Notes: generated by a model not told the origin, from the letters alone. 64,000 nt of DNA from an uncultured Alphaproteobacteria bacterium (GCA_963839985.1 CAWIXG010000002.1:58758-122757), one strand, 5' to 3'; shown: positions 19,214-61,200, counted from the stretch's first letter. Numbers and translations are program-made.

Positions 19214-20390
19214 TCAGCCGCCGCCGATCGCGTTGATGAACTTGTCACGGAACGAGAAGGCCTTCTTTGCCGGCGGGTCGCCCGGCTTCACCTCGTCGTC
19301 CTTCCATTGAAGGCCCGCTTCCAGCGACGACAGGGCTAAGATGTTGGCGTCGGCAACGCCGTCCTTGAGCACCGCGCTCTTATAGGCGCTGCCCGCCGCG
19401 CCGGCGGTGCCCTTGATCCGCGCCGTGACGCTGCCATGAAGCTTCTCGAACGCGTCTCTGCGATTTGCGTCGAACGGGGTCCTGCGTTCTTCGCCGAGCT
19501 TCTTCCAGACACCCTCGAATGAACTCGTGAAGCTGGCCGAAGGCCCATTTCCCCGACACATCCCGCCGCGACTTCAGATATTCGAAGTCGAGGGCAAGAT
19601 ACGGTGAGACTTCGCTCGCCATCCAGGCCAGCGAAATGTCCGACATGCCGTGTTCGGCATATCCGCCGCCGACGTCGGAGTGTACGCCCGCAAACCAGAC
19701 CTGCTTCAGTTCCTGCCCTCGCGCCTTTCCCTCGGGGGTCTGCGTCCAAAGGGTGGGCACAAAGTTTTTCCGCCGCTCGTCCAGCGCCAGGGCGTGGAAG
19801 GCGTGCTCGACATACTGGCCGAGGTCCGTGTTGTGAAATCCGTAGTACCGTTTGAAGAAGAAATCGACCTTCTGCAAATCCTCCGGAATGCCGACCGATC
19901 CGACCGTGTCCCACACGCCAATGCACTTGATTGGGACGTTCTGATATCGCTTCGCGAACGTGTTGAGCGCGTCGGGTTTCCTGTCCTTGAATGCGTTCCA
20001 CAGTTCAAAAAACCGGTCGAGGTCCTGCTTGCCGATCAAGCCCGCAAAGCCGATCAGGCCGCCGACACTGCGCGCCGTATAGGCACCGCGCGAGAAGCCG
20101 AACAGGAAAATCTCATCGCCCTCGCAATAGTTGTGGCAGATGAAATTGTAGGCATCGCGCACGTTGTGCGCCAGGCCGATACCCAACGCGGCACCGGCAA
20201 CCTTGCTGGCGAAGGTGCCTTCGGTGCCGACGCCAGATTGATAGAATACGATCTGCGCAACATCTTTATTGTCGCGCTTGTCGGTGGGCTGGATCGCCCA
20301 CGCCAGCCGCGACACGTTCGTGTATCCGGTGCCATTGTCCGAGTCGTTCCAGGTCCCGTCGCAGCACACCACAAGCCGCTTCATCGCCAT
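19214..20390 (-). pseudogene. DUF2235 (Tle1-like alpha/beta hydrolase) gene with apparent 1-nt frameshift near 19510-19530
   Basis: ATG 20390 follows GGAGG. MAMKRLVVCCDGTWND..., nucleophile elbow GFSRGAYTARS, and GVHSDVGGGY are DUF2235 hallmarks. After ...GKWAFGQLHEF the frame becomes Arg-rich noise. ORF 19214..19561 in the adjacent frame continues with protein-like sequence (FEGVWKKLGEERRTPFDANRRDAFEKLHG...). Confidence 0.7.
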
Positions 20391-20547
20391 CCTCGCCTCC
20401 CATTGCCCGTTAATTCTCCACTCTATCGCAGGTAGATTCGGTCGCAAAGGAACCGCCCCCATCCGGGCGATTTCATGGCCCGCGCACAGCGTTGCTTCAG
20501 GCCTGCGCGCATGCGATTTTGCCGCCCCGCCCAGCCGGAGTTTCCCG

Positions 20548-53043: not shown

Positions 53044-53118
53044 CCACGGCTCAGCTGATTCTAGCCGATCCCGGCGCGGCCACGTTAAGGTGAACTGGCG
53101 CGAATCACGGAGGTGCCG

Positions 53119-53442
53119 ATGGCCACTGCAGAACGGAAAGTCCGCCGCACGCTGCACTTCCGCTTCACCATGCCGTCGGCGGACCCGACGCAGCTCCTCT
53201 CCTTCGTCAACGCCTCGAAGCCGTTCTACGAGATGCTCGGCGGCACCGAGGTGCGGCTGATCCAGAATGTCGACGACCCGGCAAAATTCATCCAGGTGAT
53301 CGAATACGAGACGCAGGAGTCGATGGAGATCAACCGCGCGCGCATCGCCGGCGACATGCGGCTGCAGACGTATCTGCAGGCCTGGCGCGCGATCCTGCCC
53401 GGCGGCGTCGAGATCGACGTGTTCAAGGATGTGGAGCCGTAG
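53119..53442 (+). CDS. small ABM/ferredoxin-fold-like protein (hypothetical)
   Basis: GGAGG is followed 6 nt later by ATG 53119. The protein is 107 aa: RRTLHFRFTMPSADPTQLLSFVNASKPFYEMLGGTEVRLIQNVDDPAKFIQVIEYETQESME. Its pattern resembles antibiotic-biosynthesis-monooxygenase-type domains. The family call comes from pattern only. Confidence 0.55.
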   Translation: MATAERKVRRTLHFRFTMPSADPTQLLSFVNASKPFYEMLGGTEVRLIQNVDDPAKFIQVIEYETQESMEINRARIAGDMRLQTYLQAWRAILPGGVEIDVFKDVEP

Positions 53443-53467
53443 CCGGCTCTTTGCGACTGAGTGCAGG

Positions 53468-56400
53468 CTATTCGCGCAGCCGCTGTTCGATTTTGCCGCG
53501 ATCCGCGGGGTTCAGCCGGCGCAGGCGAGACCTGGCGGCATCTGCCAGCGTGTCGTCTCTCAGTCCGGGAATGTCCCACAATTCATTCCAGACATGCTGC
53601 CAGTCGACCCGCGCGTCCCGGCCGGCAAGCCACGCGCGCGCGGCCGATACGAGAGACTCGCGCGGATTCGACGACGCGGCTTGCGCTTCACGCCAGAGCG
53701 TCAGCCATACGTGCGCCCATCGCGGATGCACCTTAACGATCCGGCCCAACCACCCCTCGCCCAATGTTGCAAGACCGCCGCGATACGGCGTGTGGCCCGC
53801 AACGGTTTCCTCCCAGAGGATTCTCCAGACGGACGTCCAGCCAAATTGTTTGAGGTCGTATGCGGCGAGCCAGTCCTTGGCCTGTTGCGCCAGGACATCG
53901 CGCCTGGGCGGATCTCCTTCCGCGTCGTTCCATTGCATTTCCCAGGCGTCCTTCCATTGGTAGGGGTGCGCGCCGCCATCCCGCGGCGGCTCCGACAAGT
54001 CCTCGAGCCACGGCCCTCCGAGCGCACGCAGTCCGGCGTCGGTCTTGTCGGATTCACGCCAAAGCTCCTGCCAGACATATTTCGCTCCCTCCAGGGTCGC
54101 CGGCGCCTGAGGCAGCCATTTGCGCGCGCAGGCGCGAAGGTCGTCATCCGCCTGCGCTTGCCAAAGCGCCAGCCACACGTATCCCCAGGAGGTGGGGTCG
54201 GCGGAAGGCTGGTCGAGCCACGCACGCGCGCGCGCGCGAAAATCCGCATCCGGCTGTGCCTGCCAAAGCGCCCTCCAGACGAACGACCATGACCTGTGTT
54301 TGGCGGCTGCCTCGTCGAGCCACGCGCGCCCGCGGGCGCGAAGATCGTCGTCCGCCCGCGCCTGCCAAAGCTCCTGCCAGACAAATCCCCAGCTGTCGTG
54401 GTTGACGGATGCTTCGTCGAGCCATCTGCGCGCGCGCGAGCGAAGATCCTCATCCGCCCGCGCTTGCCAAAAGGCCTTCCAGACGAATGCCCAGGAAGCG
54501 TGGTCGACGGACACTTCGTCGAGCCATCTGCGTCCGCGGACACGAAGATCCTCATCCGCCTGCGCCTGCCAGAGCGCCAGCCAGACGTATCCCCAGGAGG
54601 GGTGGTCGGTGGACGCCTGGTCGAGCCACGCACGCCCACGGGTGCGAAGGTCGTCATCCGCGCGCGCTTGCCAGAGCGCCTGCCAGACGTATTGCCAGGA
54701 CCCGTGGTCGGCGGATGCCGCGTCGAGCCACGCGCGCCCGCTGGCGCGAAGATCGTCATCCGCCTGCGCCTCCCAAAGCGCCAGCCAGACGTATCCCCAG
54801 GAGACGTGGTCGGCGGGGACTTCGCCGAGCCATGCGCGCCCGCGGGCGCCCAGACCATCATCCGCATGCGGATGCCAGAGCGCCTGCCAAACTAAGGCCC
54901 ATGAGGCGCGATCGGCAGCCGCTTCGTCGAGCCAGGCGCGTCCGCAGGCGGTGAGATCGTCATCCGCCCGCGCTTGCCAGAGCGCCAGCCATATGAAAGC
55001 CCACGCGCTGTGGGCGGCGGAGACCGCGCCGAGCCACGCGCGGGCGCGGGCGCGAAGATCCTCATCCGCCTTTGCTTGCCATAGCGCTTGCCAGACATAT
55101 CGCCACGAACCGTGATCGGCAGACGCTTCGCCGAGCCACCTGCGCCCACGTTCGCCGAGATCGTCATCCGCCTGCGCTTGCCAGAGCGCCTCCCAGATGA
55201 ATCCCCAGGAGTCGTGACCTGCGGACGCTTCGTCGAGCCACGTGCGCCCGCGGGCGCGCAGATCCTCATCCGCCTTCCCTTGCCAGAGCGCCTCCCAGAT
55301 GAACCCCCAGGAATCGTGGCCGGCGGATACTTGATCGAGCCACGTGCGCGCACGGGCGCGAAGATCCTCATCCGCCCGCCCTTGCCAAAGCGCTTGCCAG
55401 ACAAATGCCCAGCCGTCGTGGTCGGAGAACGCTTCGTCGAGCCACCTGCGCGCTCGAGCCCGCAGACCGTCGTCGGCCTTGTTCGAATCCGCCCAGAGCC
55501 TTTCCCAGACGCGGTCCCAACCGACTGTGTCCGGCCTCGATGCGTCCAGCCAATCTCTGGCGATCCGCGTGGACTGGGCTCGATCACTTCCGGGCGCGCC
55601 ATGCAGTCTTTCCCACACGTGGCTCCAGGAGGAATGATCCGGCTGAACGCGCAGGAACGTCCACGCGCGCAGATTTGTCTCCTCGCAAGGTTCGAACGCA
55701 TCGGCGAAATTGGTAAAAATCCCAGGCCAATTCGGATCGCTTGCAAGCGCGGCATTGAGCCACGATAAAATGACCCGGCGCGCCGCCAGCCGGTCCGATT
55801 GGGCAAAGCAAGCCGCGACCAATCGTCGGGTGGTGAGTTTGTTGCATTCCCGGACCACAAAATCCGTGACCGGGCCTTCAATGTCGGTGATGCCGATCAG
55901 TATCAGGTAGTCCGTGGCCAGCGGACCCCATTCGCGCCAGCCGGGATACTTCATCAACACCTGGGCGACGATGGATGCGGCGTCCGGAAGCAAGTCGCGA
56001 TGTTGCAAAAGCTTGTGACACGACAGCCGGAAACCGGACGCCTGTTCTTCAGCCGTACGCACTGCGGCTCCGATGCATTCGATCGGCCGTGGCTGAAGAT
56101 TGAGGTCCAGTTGCCGGTCGAGATCCGCCCATACCGGCAGGTCCGCCAGCAAATTCGGCGATTGGATGAATTGCGCCTGATAAATATCGACCAGCAGTTC
56201 GCGCAACTCCGGCTCGACCACGGCGATCCGCTGTCGCGTTTCGGTGCTCGCCCGCGCTCGATCGGAGGTCAGCCGCGCCGCCGCCCATAAAGGAGCCAGC
56301 CGCCGCGATGGCGCGCCTCCGGAGTTCAATGCGGCGTAAATGCCGGCGCGCAAGTGCGCCTTGCGATAGCGCCGCCGGTCCGCCCCGCCGAACCAGGCGA

Positions 56401-56857
56401 TATAGATCGCATTGGCAAGGTGCGGGTGGGTCAAGCGGTAGCCGGCTTTGTCGGCGTCGAACGAGAGATGCCGCTCCAGACCTTTCAACCGGTCGAACGC
56501 CGCGCCGAGTTGGGGGTCGCGTTCCAGTTCGTCATCGATCGATTGTGCCGGGAAGAGCGCATAGAGGCGGTTCATCGACAGGATCTCGGCGATCAGGTCG
56601 AAGATCGTCCGCGACGAAGCCCCTTTTCTTTCCATCCCTTCCAGGCGCCTGCGGAAGCTCGCTGCGAATTCCGGCAGCGGTTCGCCGGTTGCCCACTCGA
56701 AGAACAACTGGACAATGAGAACATTGCCCGCGTCGCCCACGGGCAGATCCGTTTTGCCGGTGCGCCGCCGGTACCATTCCTTTAGCTCATCGATGTCGTC
56801 GAGCGTCTCCAGAAAGTCGGGCGGCGACTTCTCCAGGAGTACGCGATCGACCAGTCA
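53468..56857 (-). CDS. STAND locus fragment C: helical/winged-helix region and ~20 Trp-rich helical repeats
   Basis: The ORF track starts this ORF at GTG 56740, but the frame is open and protein-like back to 56857, directly after an in-frame TGA. A GYRLTHPHLANAIY (MHD-like) segment is followed by repeats of consensus WgfvWqALWqaqADdDLRaRGRaWLDeasadHdS. Confidence 0.7.
54086..55411 (-). repeat. 13 tandem in-frame 102-bp (34-aa) coding repeats, core of the Trp-rich array
   Basis: Counting from GTG 56740, the first Trp of each unit falls at residues 444, 478, 512, 546, 580, 614, 648, 682, 716, 750, 784, 818 and 852. That is an exact 34-residue period with no indels. Degenerate units continue on both sides (about 53540-55627). 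Confidence 0.9.
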
Positions 56858-57216
56858 TTCTGGAAATATTCCATCTGCTCGGTTGGCCCACAGCAAACCA
56901 TCGCCGGTCGCGGAGCATCCGGATACGCAACCGTGATCGAATCGAGCTCACGCAGCGAGTTCTCGATTGCGGCGGCGACGCGCTGTGAGCGTTCGGCCGT
57001 GTAAGGGTCGTCCGAGGCAAATATGACGTCCTGGCGCCTGGCGAAAAACGGACGCGCCCACCGGACGGCCTCCGCGAGGCGGTCTGCCTGGTCGCCCAGC
57101 CAGATGACGATGCGCCGATCGTCCTCGCTGTGGATATTGGCGAGGAGATGAAGCAAGGCGACGCTCTTTCCGGCGCCCGACGGGCCTGAGATCCACCAGA
57201 CGGGGAGTTCGGGCAT
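56782..57216 (-). CDS. STAND locus fragment B: P-loop NTPase core
   Basis: Walker A is WWISGPSGAGKSVALLHLL and the candidate Walker B is RQDVIFASDDPY. The last ~22 codons (SIAYSWRSRRPTFWRRSTTSMS) look out of frame. Confidence 0.65.
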   Translation of the reverse strand: MPELPVWWISGPSGAGKSVALLHLLANIHSEDDRRIVIWLGDQADRLAEAVRWARPFFARRQDVIFASDDPYTAERSQRVAAAIENSLRELDSITVAYPDAPRPAMVCCGPTEQMEYFQNDWSIAYSWRSRRPTFWRRSTTSMS

Positions 57217-58051
57217 CGGTGGTTGCCTGCCGGTTGGCGAACCATGTTTCGACGTCGCCGTGGAGCGTTTTGTAGAAAGCGCGCGGAGCGAACCGCCCTT
57301 CCATCAGGTGGATCCGCGTCGGGAGCTGCCCGGTCAGGGTCGCCTTCCGGCGGTCGAGTTCGAGCCGTGCTTCCGCGGGCGGCCGGTCGGTGGCCTGCCA
57401 AATGTAGAACCGGTGCGCGAGCTCACGCGCCGCAGTTGCAAGCGCATCGAGCTCGACGATGATCGACCGGCAGCTTGCATCGAGTCCTTCGGGCGTTGGA
57501 TTGGCGAGAAGCCGGCCGATCCATTTCTCGACGGTCGCGAACGGATCGCCGGCGCCGAATGCATTCACCAGATGGATCGCAAGTGCATGTAGCGGATCGG
57601 CCTCCACGCGAACGGACACGCGGCGGCGAAACGCATCGAGGGCGGATTCGGCGACCTCGCCGCCGGGTCGCCAGCGCGCCAGCGCGGACTCGACGTCGCG
57701 CAGGATTTTCCTCGACGTGAGCACGCAATAGCGCAGTTGAGGCGCGATACTGAGCGCTTCTTCGGAGGCCAGGACATCGATCTCCCACAGCTCCTTCAGC
57801 GCCTTTTGCATCGCGCCGGAGTGGAGCGAGAGCTTCGCCTGGGTGACGACGAGATAGCCGCCCTCCGTGCTCACGATGTCGGAAAGCGCCTCGACGAAAA
57901 CGTTCGACTGATCCGGCGCACCCGTCTTGCGGGCGAGTTGCAGCAGCGCGGCGGCCAATTGAAACTGGAATCCCTCGATGGAGGCCAGCCCGCCCGCCCC
58001 CTCGCGCCGCAAGCCCCACTTCCGTCGCAGGTGGTCGAATTCAGCCCACAT
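56948..58051 (-). CDS. STAND locus fragment A: Cap4/DUF4297-like PD-(D/E)xK nuclease domain plus linker
   Basis: ATG 58051 within ORF 56948..58117. GAGGLASIEGFQFQLAAALLQLARK...VFVEALSDIVSTEGGYLVVTQAKLS. The last ~85 codons (after ~57213) are Arg/Pro-rich out-of-frame read-through. Confidence 0.65.
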   Translation of the reverse strand: MWAEFDHLRRKWGLRREGAGGLASIEGFQFQLAAALLQLARKTGAPDQSNVFVEALSDIVSTEGGYLVVTQAKLSLHSGAMQKALKELWEIDVLASEEALSIAPQLRYCVLTSRKILRDVESALARWRPGGEVAESALDAFRRRVSVRVEADPLHALAIHLVNAFGAGDPFATVEKWIGRLLANPTPEGLDASCRSIIVELDALATAARELAHRFYIWQATDRPPAEARLELDRRKATLTGQLPTRIHLMEGRFAPRAFYKTLHGDVETWFANRQATTDARTPRLVDLRPVGRRKERRLASSPRQYPQRGRSAHRHLAGRPGRPPRGGRPVGASVFRQAPGRHICLGRPLHGRTLTARRRRNRELAA

Positions 58052-58195
58052 TCCGTGCCGTCCGCTGACGCGCGCACCGAAAGTGTATCGACTCGTAGTT
58101 GAATGGGCCAGCAGCAAGGGCGCGGCCGGATATCGCGACGCCGCAGGCGGATCCGGCGCGATACAGCCGCGGCGCTGCCTTCGCCAGCGGCGCGG

Positions 58196-59479
58196 CTACA
58201 CGCCGAAAATCTTCGGCAGGAACGTGGACAGCGGCGGGATGTAGCTGATCAGGATCAGCACGGCGACGTTGGTCAGGATGAACGGCAGGATCCCGGCGAC
58301 CACCGCTTCCATCGGCCGGTTGAGCGTCGACGCCGCGACCGCAAGGTCGAGCCCAAGCGGCGGCATGATCATGCCGGTACAAACATTGAGCGTGACGACC
58401 ATGCCGAAATGCACCGGGTCGATACCGAGCGCGGCGGCGACCGGGAACAGGGTCGGCAGGAAGATGACCATGATCGAATTGGGATCGAGGAACATCGCGC
58501 AGGCGAGAAAGATGACGTTCACGACCATCATGAACACGACCCAGTTCACGCCGCCATCGCGCACCAGCGCGAGCACCGCCCGGTCGACGCCCGACAGCGT
58601 GATGAAGAAGGCGAGCAGCGCACCCATCGCCAGCAGGATGAAGATCACGCCGGTCGAGATCGCGCTGTCCTTGGCGATATCGAACACATCGCGCCAGCCG
58701 AAGGCGCGAAAGATCAGCACCTCGACGCCGATCGCGTAGACGACGGAGACAGCCGCGGCTTCGGTCGCGGTGAACACCCCGGAGAAAATCCCGACCAGCA
58801 GGATCACCTGCATCAGCAGCGCCCAGAACGCGTCGCGGAACGCCTTCCACCGCGCCGCGCCCGAATAGCGTTCGCCGACCGCGGCGCCGACGCGCCAGGC
58901 TTCCAGCGCGACCAGCACCATGAAGGCGAGGCCGAGAACGATCCCGATGACGAGGCCGGCGGCGAACAGCGCGGCGATCGACGTCCCGGTCAGCCAGCTG
59001 TAGACCACGAAGGTGATCGAGGGCGGGATCAGCAGCGCGCATTCGGCGCTCGATGCGATCAGCCCGAGGCTGAATTTCTCGGAAAATCCGGCGCGCTTGA
59101 GCTCGGGAAACGACAGCCGCCCCATCGCGGCGACGGTCGCGGGCGCGGAACCGGCGGCGGCGCCGAACACCATGCAGGTGACGACCGTGGAATGACCGAT
59201 GCCGCCGCGGTAGTGCCCGACCAGCGCCCGGAACAGCTCGGCAAGCTGCGCCGCCATGCGGCCGCGCGCCATCAGGTCCGAGGCGAAGACGAAGAACGGG
59301 ATCGCGAGCAGCGTCACGACCTCGACGCCACCGACCACGCGCTGCCCGATGATCAGGTCGGGCATGTGCGGGTGGAAGATGTGCTTGGCGAGAACCGCCG
59401 GAAGGCCGATGACGAGAAATATCTCGGTGCCCGCGATCAGCAGCGCGACGGCGAACACGATCAGCAGCAGAACGATCAT
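58196..59479 (-). CDS. dctM: TRAP transporter large permease
   Basis: 427 aa, polytopic, DctM-family sequence (MIVLLLIVFAVALLIAGTEIFLVIGL...). Confidence 0.9.
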   Translation of the reverse strand: MIVLLLIVFAVALLIAGTEIFLVIGLPAVLAKHIFHPHMPDLIIGQRVVGGVEVVTLLAIPFFVFASDLMARGRMAAQLAELFRALVGHYRGGIGHSTVVTCMVFGAAAGSAPATVAAMGRLSFPELKRAGFSEKFSLGLIASSAECALLIPPSITFVVYSWLTGTSIAALFAAGLVIGIVLGLAFMVLVALEAWRVGAAVGERYSGAARWKAFRDAFWALLMQVILLVGIFSGVFTATEAAAVSVVYAIGVEVLIFRAFGWRDVFDIAKDSAISTGVIFILLAMGALLAFFITLSGVDRAVLALVRDGGVNWVVFMMVVNVIFLACAMFLDPNSIMVIFLPTLFPVAAALGIDPVHFGMVVTLNVCTGMIMPPLGLDLAVAASTLNRPMEAVVAGILPFILTNVAVLILISYIPPLSTFLPKIFGV

Positions 59480-59488
59480 GCCGCAGCC

Positions 59489-59986
59489 CTACACATGATG
59501 CACCGGATCGACCTCGACGGCGAAACGGTCGGCCGGCGTGACGATCTCGAGCAGGTAGCGCAGCGCCAGAAGGCCGAAGCCGAGCGGCATCACGATATAG
59601 AGCCAGAGCATCGAGATATTCAGCGTCGGGCTGGTCTGGCCCGATTTCGCGACGAAGATCGTGATGTCGACGCCGATCTTGGCGAGATAGGCCGTGAACG
59701 CGAGCCCCGCGAGATTGATGACGAGCTTGGCGGCGCGCTGGCCCGTGGGCGGCATGCGCGTCAGCACCATGCGCATCGCGATGTGCCGGCCGCCTTCCAG
59801 GCCAAGCCCGAGCCCGAGGAAGATCATCCAGACCAGGCCGAAGAGGCACACCTCCTCGATCCAGGCGAGCTGCGGCGCCAGGACCGGGATGAGCTCGCGC
59901 ACGGCGACATTGAAGGTGTAGGCAAACGACATCGCCAGCATGATGGCACCGAGAACGATGCCCTCGATGCCGCGCAGCGTCTTCAT
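59489..59986 (-). CDS. dctQ: TRAP transporter small permease
   Basis: 165 aa with four TM helices, positioned between dctP and dctM. Confidence 0.85.
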   Translation of the reverse strand: MKTLRGIEGIVLGAIMLAMSFAYTFNVAVRELIPVLAPQLAWIEEVCLFGLVWMIFLGLGLGLEGGRHIAMRMVLTRMPPTGQRAAKLVINLAGLAFTAYLAKIGVDITIFVAKSGQTSPTLNISMLWLYIVMPLGFGLLALRYLLEIVTPADRFAVEVDPVHHV

Positions 59987-59994
59987 CGAGGCAC

Positions 59995-61029
59995 TCAGAA
60001 ACCGAGCTTCTTGCGTTCCTCGTCGTACACCGCGAGCACCTTCGCGCCCTCCGCGCCGGCGCGCTCCGCGTACGTGGCGCGCGCCTTCGGCGCCATCGCG
60101 TCGCGCAGCGCCTTGCGCTCGATCTCGTCGGCGACGCGCACGCTGAGCTTCGCGGCCTTGATCGTCTCGATCGAGGTGTTCTGTACCGCTTCCTTCATCT
60201 CCTCGACCTGCGGGCGCATCTCGTCGAACGCCTTGGCGATGATGTCGCGCTGCTCGGGGCTGAGCTTGTTCCAGAACGCGTTGCTGAACAGCACGATGTC
60301 TTCCATCGCGCCGTGCTCGGTCACCACCATGTGCTTCTGCACCTCGTGGAATTTCATGGTGGTGATGGTGTCGATCGGATTCTCCTGTCCGTCGATCAGG
60401 CCGGTCTGCAGCGAGGTGTAGAGCTCGCTGAAATTGATCGCGATCGCGGTCGCGCCGACGGCGGCGAACTGGTCGATCAGGATCTTCGAATCCATCACGC
60501 GGAACTTCTGCCCCTTGAAGGCTTCGAGGTTGGCCAGTGGCTTATTCGAGGTCAGGCTCTTGCGCCCGTTCGGCCAGATGCTGAGCGCATGGACGCCGCG
60601 GCTCGCAAAGCTTGCCAGCAGTGCCTTGCCGAAGGGACCCTCGCGCAGCTTCTGCGACAGCGCCCGGTCGGTCGGGAAGATGTAGGGGATATCCAGCACC
60701 GAAATGACCGGATTGAAGCCGCCGAGGAACGCCGCCGGCATCACGGTGCCCTCGATGCCGCCGAACTGCGTGCTCTCGATCATCTGGCGCGCATTGCCGA
60801 GCTGCGAGGACGGATAGAGCTGGAACTCGACCGCGCCCTTGGTGCGCTCCTTCACCAGCGCGGCAACCTTTTCGAGGCCCTTGTGGCGGGGCTGGGTCGG
60901 CGCCTCGAGGTGCCCGATGCGGGCCGTGATGGTACCCTGTGCGCTGGCAGAACCCGCAAGGCCGCCGATCCAGCCGGCGACCGCTCCCGACACGCCGAGC
61001 TTCAGCACGTGGCGTCTATTGTGACTCAT
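59995..61029 (-). CDS. dctP: TRAP transporter substrate-binding protein
   Basis: ATG 61029 follows GGGAGGG. The Tat-like signal is MSHNRRHVLKLGVSGAVAGWIGGLAGSASA, and the body is DctP-family. Confidence 0.88.
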   Translation of the reverse strand: MSHNRRHVLKLGVSGAVAGWIGGLAGSASAQGTITARIGHLEAPTQPRHKGLEKVAALVKERTKGAVEFQLYPSSQLGNARQMIESTQFGGIEGTVMPAAFLGGFNPVISVLDIPYIFPTDRALSQKLREGPFGKALLASFASRGVHALSIWPNGRKSLTSNKPLANLEAFKGQKFRVMDSKILIDQFAAVGATAIAINFSELYTSLQTGLIDGQENPIDTITTMKFHEVQKHMVVTEHGAMEDIVLFSNAFWNKLSPEQRDIIAKAFDEMRPQVEEMKEAVQNTSIETIKAAKLSVRVADEIERKALRDAMAPKARATYAERAGAEGAKVLAVYDEERKKLGF

Positions 61030-61200
61030 AAGCCCTCCCAGGCGCCCGCAATCGGGATCGCACCAAACAGTCATTGTTCCTCACTCCGCCACCCGCTTCA
61101 ACGACGAAGCGCCGCCTGCCCCGATACCTTGTGGAAACAATGCGGATCGGCCGCGCCGCCGGCCGGTATTTCGTCACAGTTCTTGTGATACCACAGAGGC

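Follow-up and report, generated by a model that had tools for sequence, protein, structure and literature searches.

Results

Three open reading frames form one gene broken by two frame changes

In a 64,000-nt stretch of DNA (the window) from an uncultured Alphaproteobacteria bacterium (GCA_963839985.1, CAWIXG010000002.1:58758-122757), we examined a minus-strand locus between pheA and the dctPQM operon. A preliminary description had read its three open reading frames (ORFs) as a single protein of about 1,500 aa, built like an immune sensor of the Avs/NLR type. An ORF listing reproduced all three (A, 56948..58117; B, 56782..57216; C, 53468..56740). Three-frame translation placed ORFs A and C in one frame and ORF B, which bears the Walker A motif, in another, so that exactly two 1-nt frame changes, hereafter J1 and J2, separate them. 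Removal of one T at 57208/57209 together with addition of one base at 56853/56854 resulted in a 4,584-nt ORF encoding 1,527 aa with a single terminal stop, in agreement with the size first proposed. Four intact single-chain homologues (P0001-P0004) aligned with a provisional 806-aa N-terminal join at 51-64% identity and 98-100% coverage; because these alignments cross both J1 and J2, the joined ORF is not a chance construct. In an AlphaFold2 model of repaired residues 1-1096 (22-sequence alignment; mean predicted local distance difference test score, pLDDT, of 86.6), both junctions were without a low-confidence stretch. The product also contains every motif quoted in the preliminary description, namely GAGGLASIEGFQFQ, VFVEALSDIV...VVTQAKLS, WWISGPSGAGKS, DVIFASDD and GYRLTHPHLANAIY. 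The three ORFs are one gene broken by two 1-nt frame changes, whose features are compiled in Table 1.

Table 1 Features of the disrupted gene, with residue numbers of the repaired product and positions in the window (L083, a nearly identical metagenomic contig described below; AF2, AlphaFold2)
Feature	Residues	Position	Strand	Basis or remark
Whole disrupted gene		53468..58051	minus	ATG 58051, stop 53468-53470; repaired product 1,527 aa; spanned by intact homologues
Cap4/DUF4297-type PD-(D/E)xK nuclease (predicted)	1-215	57407..58051	minus	Conserved columns, AF2, Foldseek, PF14130 in relatives
Frameshift J1, one extra base		57208..57209	minus	Plus strand GAGTTC, against GAGTC (GANTC) in L083; P0051 (422 aa) reads through
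STAND NTPase core, five beta-strands	281-410	56824..57211	minus	PF25199; AF2 secondary structure
Walker A, GPSGAGKS, with K295	289-296	57163..57186	minus	G289, G292, G294, K295 and S296 invariant
Walker B, DVIFASDD	341-348	57007..57030	minus	D347 and D348 invariant
Frameshift J2, one base missing		56853..56854	minus	GAC/TGG where GAC-CTG is expected; common to L083
Helical domain and winged-helix-like module	417-556	56384..56803	minus	AF2 model; conserved G-Y-R-L-T-H-P-H
Non-periodic alpha-helical solenoid, from NTPase module to repeats	557-789	55685..56383	minus	AF2 model
Trp-rich 34-aa helical-hairpin array, about 20 units	790-1527	53471..55684	minus	Tandem Repeats Finder, repeat HMM, Foldseek
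Array core, 13 copies of a 102-bp unit		54122..55445	minus	Tandem Repeats Finder

A predicted Cap4-type nuclease precedes a STAND NTPase module

Both its structural model and its conserved residues identify the N-terminal region as a Cap4/DUF4297-type nuclease, for which cutting of double-stranded DNA is predicted. Comparing the modelled domain (pLDDT 83.3) with the Protein Data Bank (PDB) using Foldseek gave as top matches LmuA (9nxx, E 3.5e-5), HamA of Hachiman (8zue, 8e-4) and HerA-DUF4297 (9c1m, 2e-3), each with probability 1.00 and modest TM-scores (0.40-0.47), followed by classical PD-(D/E)xK restriction endonucleases. Across 19-22 relatives, G20, G21, G27, F28, Q31, E54, S57-D58, Q71 and K73 are invariant or nearly so (E54, Q71 and K73 invariant, S57-D58 nearly invariant). 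All are retained in the window copy, with E54 at 57892, D58 at 57880 and the Q-x-K motif, Q71-x-K73, at 57841 and 57835. These observations support the nuclease assignment made at the outset. The PF14130 (Cap4_nuclease) match expected at the N-terminus was obtained for 5 of 19 relatives (best E 2.1e-5), while the window copy itself gave at best a weak match to the PADLOC model of LmuA (residues 24-80, E 3.2e-3).

The middle of the repaired protein matched PF25199 (nSTAND_NTPase5) over residues 277-367 with 35.4 bits, above the gathering cut-off of 34, and the same family was matched by 18 of the 19 sequences in alignment A1, in line with the STAND or AAA+ profile match anticipated there. Weaker matches were to AAA_16 and NPHP3_N. 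The secondary structure of the AlphaFold2 model, in which five strands, a helical bundle and a beta-hairpin are seen along with the THPH motif, is compatible with the order nucleotide-binding domain, helical domain, winged helix and repeats. H542 of the GYRLTHPH motif is encoded at 56426-56428, and columns G270, H275 and H277 of alignment A3 are invariant. In a Foldseek search with the whole model, TPR/HAT solenoids dominated and the NTPase core was not isolated; NLRP9 was among the matches.

The C-terminal half is predicted to form a TPR/HAT-like solenoid of Trp-rich repeats

About 20 two-helix repeats had been proposed for the C-terminus, and this count was recovered by a repeat hidden Markov model (HMM), which detects 17 units, or about 20 with the degenerate copies; Tandem Repeats Finder delimits the regular core. 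The period is exactly 34 aa (102 bp), with paired helices in each modelled unit and the consensus ADDDLRARGRAWLDEASADHxSWGFVWQALWQAR. Variability within the unit is concentrated at positions 19, 21, 24, 28 and 34. In the window copy, the 13 core copies show 75% matches at the DNA level; the units as such are only about 73% identical in DNA sequence, so that the array has not been recently homogenised.

A Pfam scan of the whole protein at E<=1 listed no TPR, HAT, Sel1, HEAT or other repeat family, and a word-indexed protein search with the repeat region alone returned one match, which was uninformative. When the modelled solenoid was compared with the PDB using Foldseek, the best matches were HAT/TPR proteins (spliceosomal HAT proteins, Ski3, IFT-A, Ctr9 and OGT). 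On the strength of this model, the putative sensor region folds as a TPR/HAT-like solenoid, and the repeat previously called novel-looking is at the fold level a 34-aa TPR/HAT-like hairpin.

Relatives exchange effector domains and several lie in islands

While a word-indexed search found only about 30 relatives of the protein, an exhaustive profile search recovered 1,011 representatives at E<=1e-3, 469 of them at E<=1e-30. The majority have 1,200-2,000 aa and match from the nuclease into the repeats, and the family comes mainly from soil Alphaproteobacteria and metagenomes. In some relatives the N-terminal nuclease is replaced by a protein kinase, a caspase or a DUF676 esterase, and in one relative nuclease and NTPase are kept while a TIR domain at the C-terminus takes the place of the repeat sensor. 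The domain-swapped members are P0011, P0170, P0183, P0191 and P0177, and the DUF676 esterase member additionally has C-terminal S1 domains. Family members carry between 1 and 26 repeats each. Among 67 proteins with at least four units, 16 contain unit pairs that are at least 85% identical, some units being identical.

Several homologues reside in genomic islands. One intact gene (L085, 10001-13879) lies in an island between nusG and rplK together with Vsr, a Dcm methylase and HATPase_c_3, and a second (L090, 10001-13528), likewise intact, in an island between rpoA and rplQ. Both islands split ribosomal or transcription gene clusters that are normally contiguous. Another homologue is found in an integrase island with Fic and Mrr_cat, another adjoins a NACHT protein and Dcm/Z1/DUF4420, and the contig of yet another encodes DndD about 10 kb away. 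Such exchange of effectors, combined with location in islands, is what conflict or defence systems typically show.

The gene lies at a synteny breakpoint

Neighbouring genes in the window are kdsB, pheA, a 109-aa ORF, dctPQM, an SLT transglycosylase gene and TctC. To place the gene in the context of related genomes, we compared 80 related Hyphomicrobiales loci among the pheA matches listed, the best pheA being about 70% identical; the family label Nitrobacteraceae given in the preliminary description is unconfirmed at this distance. The block oppA-cytochrome c-pheA is kept in nearly all of these loci, and none of the 80 has the STAND gene or dctPQM after pheA, indicating that the gene is accessory and not part of a syntenic core. 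When the dctPQM operon (58196-61074) was compared with L081 and L082, from other metagenome genomes, DctM was more than 90% identical and the genes on both sides were entirely different, which places the operon in a rearranged or mobile context. As the pheA block is conserved and the DctM relatives have other neighbours, the STAND gene sits at a synteny breakpoint. With the listed relatives only about 70% identical, the pheA comparison reveals a break in synteny and not a clean insertion site.

The 109-aa ORF (53113-53442, plus strand), whose stop codon lies 25 nt from that of the convergent STAND gene, has a homologue after pheA in only four of the 80 listed loci (L014, L015, L026 and L036). 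It has no Pfam match at E<=0.001, and its earlier label of ABM-like is unconfirmed. No sigma-70-like promoter was found for the STAND gene. The 64-kb window contains no tRNA gene, and the only Rfam family in it is the bacterial small signal recognition particle RNA (RF00169, 18607-18703, minus strand, 53.5 bits).

In base composition the gene stands apart. Its GC content at third codon positions (GC3) is 0.74-0.79, and 0.68 in one stretch, compared to 0.86-0.91 in the neighbouring genes. A codon-position HMM, for which host genes served as training set, assigns the label non-coding to the 3' two-thirds of the gene (53443-56319, GC3 0.68-0.77), including most of its 3' half; label and low GC3 are consistent with foreign origin or with composition driven by the repeats. 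Judged by synteny, composition and occurrence, the gene is an apparently accessory, compositionally foreign and patchily distributed one.

One frame change is probably a basecalling artefact and the other is most likely genuine

To evaluate the two frame changes, we made use of a Logan contig (L083, run ERR11593888) that is 99.83% identical to window positions 58428..53666, with seven single-nucleotide polymorphisms (SNPs). The extra base of J1 is absent from L083, while J2 is present. Five of the seven SNPs fall in the last 170 nt of dctM (58260-58428), and this cluster beside the STAND gene suggests strain heterogeneity or a recombination tract.

The codon-position HMM detected only three same-strand frame switches away from a stop codon in the 64 kb, namely J1, J2 and one near 19,530. 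The third switch lies in a gene for a type VI secretion Tle1-like/DUF2235 hydrolase (19214-20462, minus strand; PF09994, E 4e-88), which appears to continue in another frame after about residue 315. There the plus strand reads GAACTC, and removal of one A creates GANTC, the same pattern as at J1. Both sites become GANTC when the extra base is removed, as do only 1.9% of the positions in the window. GANTC is the CcrM methylation motif. The two insertions are probably basecalling artefacts linked to N6-methyladenine in a long-read assembly, the platform being deduced from this pattern. Any pseudogene call in this contig calls for caution, and such frameshifts in metagenome-assembled genomes can be methylation-motif artefacts.

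J2 does not lie at a GANTC site and is present in L083, which is itself free of the GANTC-type error; it is thus most likely genuine, a judgement in which we have reasonable, not full, confidence. Repair to GAC-CTG restores the ...F-x-x-D-L-V-D-R-V... of the homologues, L-V-D matching the closest of them. Treating J2 instead as a GANTC base lost within GATC gives a W-S-x reading that fits the homologues worse than L-V-D, and this repair was discarded. A programmed or recurrent frameshift was likewise dismissed: P0052 ends in the same out-of-frame tail, but its contig is fragmented with broken neighbours, and J2 lies without a slippery sequence. A pattern scan of metagenomes for further alleles of the J2 site found none.

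If genuine, J2 would split the protein inside the NTPase fold, into a nuclease-NTPase fragment of 422 aa and a C-terminal part without an anchor. The first in-frame start codon after J2 is GTG 56740, where no obvious ribosome-binding site was seen and which offers no convincing restart. Since all catalytic motifs are intact and no in-frame stops have accumulated, the inactivation, if real, was recent. From these sequence features, the gene appears to be a recent pseudogene in this genome and is probably non-functional.

The most serious alternative holds that the gene is intact and functional and that both frame changes are errors of assembly or basecalling in a long-read metagenome-assembled genome. 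The absence of J1 from the almost identical L083, the GANTC pattern that J1 has in common with the hydrolase gene and the undamaged motifs in 1,527 repaired codons without an internal stop would all be accounted for, and a homologue on the long-read-style contig L084 is shattered, as are its neighbours. J2, in turn, could still be a systematic error common to both assemblies. On the other side, J2 lies outside GANTC, with its best repair set by the match to the closest homologue, and is carried by an assembly that lacks the GANTC-type error and differs by seven SNPs. Furthermore, the gene makes up 7% of the window yet holds two of the only three frame switches of this kind. We therefore regard a fully intact gene as possible but rather unlikely, and keep to the reading of an interrupted one.

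Discussion

The unity of the gene, its domain identities, its membership of a large family and its accessory status are established by this analysis. The explanation that fits them best, and which we consider likely, is that the locus holds one gene encoding an NLR-like pattern-recognition protein of the Avs type (antiviral STAND), belonging to the nSTAND_NTPase5 clade and interrupted in this copy. The domains and their order support the architecture of effector, STAND ATPase and repeat sensor put forward in the preliminary description. In this arrangement, the N-terminal Cap4/DUF4297 PD-(D/E)xK domain would be the DNA-cutting effector, the P-loop NTPase with its helical and winged-helix modules the oligomerisation switch, and the Trp-rich repeat solenoid of about 740 aa at the C-terminus the ligand sensor. 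By analogy with Avs3 and Avs7, we infer an anti-phage role and an oligomerisation mechanism for intact members of the family. The ligand of the repeat solenoid would be a conserved protein from an invading phage or from another mobile element, and its binding would lift autoinhibition. The NTPase modules would then oligomerise and bring the nuclease domains together, whereupon DNA would be degraded and the infection aborted.

In SeAvs3 and SeAvs7, an autoinhibited monomer binds a phage protein through its TPR sensor, leading to NTPase-driven tetramers in which the Cap4 double-stranded DNA nuclease is active (PMC13581612). With the order of Cap4, STAND and TPR modules established, the combination that the preliminary description could not name corresponds to the characterised Avs3- and Avs7-like proteins (PMC13581612). 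Like these, the window protein is a single chain with a Cap4-type nuclease, a STAND NTPase, a winged-helix-like module with a conserved His and a long TPR-like solenoid, in the same order, and comes from a family that exchanges its effectors in a modular fashion. The correspondence extends to dimensions: SeAvs7 has 1,523 aa, Walker A K292, H545 and TPRs from 561, and the window protein 1,527 aa, K295, H542/H544 and a solenoid from about 557. In contrast to the Avs proteins, it has no detectable sequence match to solved Avs chains or to the PADLOC Avs and Dsr1 models, and its NTPase is of the nSTAND_NTPase5 type. Searches of PADLOC-DB 2.0 at E<=1 gave no match to the HMMs of Avs1-Avs5 (AVAST) or the bNACHT families, and no Dsr1 among the matches, an indirect test of homology to the Avs7/Dsr1 sensor. 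The sensors also differ, that of the window protein being a regular 34-aa Trp-rich array of variable copy number and that of Avs7 irregular and bilobed by description, and the window copy is frameshifted, unlike Avs3 and Avs7.

LmuA, HamA, HerA-DUF4297 and CBASS Cap4 have the same nuclease fold and the same motif set, GG...GF.(Y/F)Q...E...D...Q.K. Those nucleases are governed by separate partners, namely the SMC-like LmuB, the helicase HamB, HerA or a cyclic-nucleotide-binding SAVED domain, whereas in the window protein a STAND NTPase and a repeat sensor share one chain with the nuclease, and LmuB, HamB, HerA and SAVED are all missing from the genes nearby. No SAVED or CD-NTase match was obtained in the protein or its neighbours, as would mark CBASS, and for Lamassu no SMC-like LmuB lies adjacent, the neighbours being the 109-aa ORF, pheA and dctM.

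Several observations weigh against an antiviral STAND protein at this locus. The neighbouring genes are all housekeeping genes, with no defence gene or integrase among them (the lack of an integrase or tRNA nearby had been described before), and no flanking direct repeats were found at the gene. The homologue P0005 likewise has housekeeping neighbours only. PADLOC-DB 2.0 at E<=1 identified no known defence system, with weak matches to mad8 (3e-4), LmuA (3e-3) and Cas2 (0.3) only, and the N-terminus of the window copy has no Pfam PF14130 match at E<=0.01. Profiles of the whole family and of the region from the NTPase to the winged helix, searched against PDB sequences, retrieved generic P-loops only (KaiC, LolD) and no Avs or NLR protein. 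As sequence profiles reach no solved Avs or NLR, the grounds for the STAND assignment are the Pfam family, the motifs and the order of domains in the model. Across the clade, no member is known from experiment to act against phages, and a literature search by the name nSTAND5 returned nothing relevant and no experimental characterisation.

The lack of defence genes around the window copy and P0005 and of a PADLOC system match would fit a non-immune STAND protein without a role in phage defence, such as an NTPase of signalling or regulation whose TPR domain binds proteins, and 391 of 589 STAND clades are not classed as defence-associated (PMC13581612). The N-terminus, though, is a Cap4-type nuclease with intact catalytic residues and not a DNA-binding output domain, the relatives swap in caspase, kinase or esterase domains and in one case TIR for the repeats, several homologues occupy restriction-modification or integrase islands, and the distribution is patchy and the composition atypical. 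A non-immune function is accordingly improbable in our view. Least credible of all is a multi-component system in which the three ORFs are separate genes for a Lamassu- or Hachiman-like nuclease, an ATPase and a repeat protein: the deposited record does call the ORFs separately (P0019, 367 aa) and the LmuA and HamA nucleases do work with separate partners, but more than 100 relatives are one chain of 1,200-2,000 aa with all parts, the ORF boundaries fall inside the NTPase fold, ORF tails are out of frame (...STTSMS before a stop is a shifted reading of the conserved DDIDEL) and no SMC/LmuB or helicase partner is encoded nearby.

We thus return to the interrupted Avs-type gene. The system type is already known, and what most sets this protein apart is the regular tandem array of Trp-rich repeats in its sensor. 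Fungal and cyanobacterial NLRs carry highly conserved tandem TPR, WD40 or ANK repeats. The present family resembles them in having near-identical units, a widely variable copy number (1-26 here) and variability at few repeat positions, while the units of the window copy are only about 73% identical at the DNA level. On this basis it is conceivable, and we put it forward tentatively, that the nSTAND5/Cap4 proteins with Trp-rich arrays are a distinct Avs family whose sensor evolves, in the manner of the cassette-type repeats of fungal NLRs, by duplication, loss and shuffling of units, with a few variable positions in each unit setting specificity. If so, the surface used for pattern recognition could be re-targeted rapidly.

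Lee et al. (Nature 2026) reported at least 90 defence-associated STAND families and 589 STAND clades, among which the nSTAND5 clade may already be included (PMC13581612). The window copy, for its part, chiefly illustrates a defence gene that has decayed recently or been mis-assembled. Should an intact relative prove active, it would add one more family to the catalogue of bacterial STAND pattern-recognition receptors, and its regular repeat array would be a convenient subject for asking how ligand specificity depends on the number of repeats and on a few variable positions.

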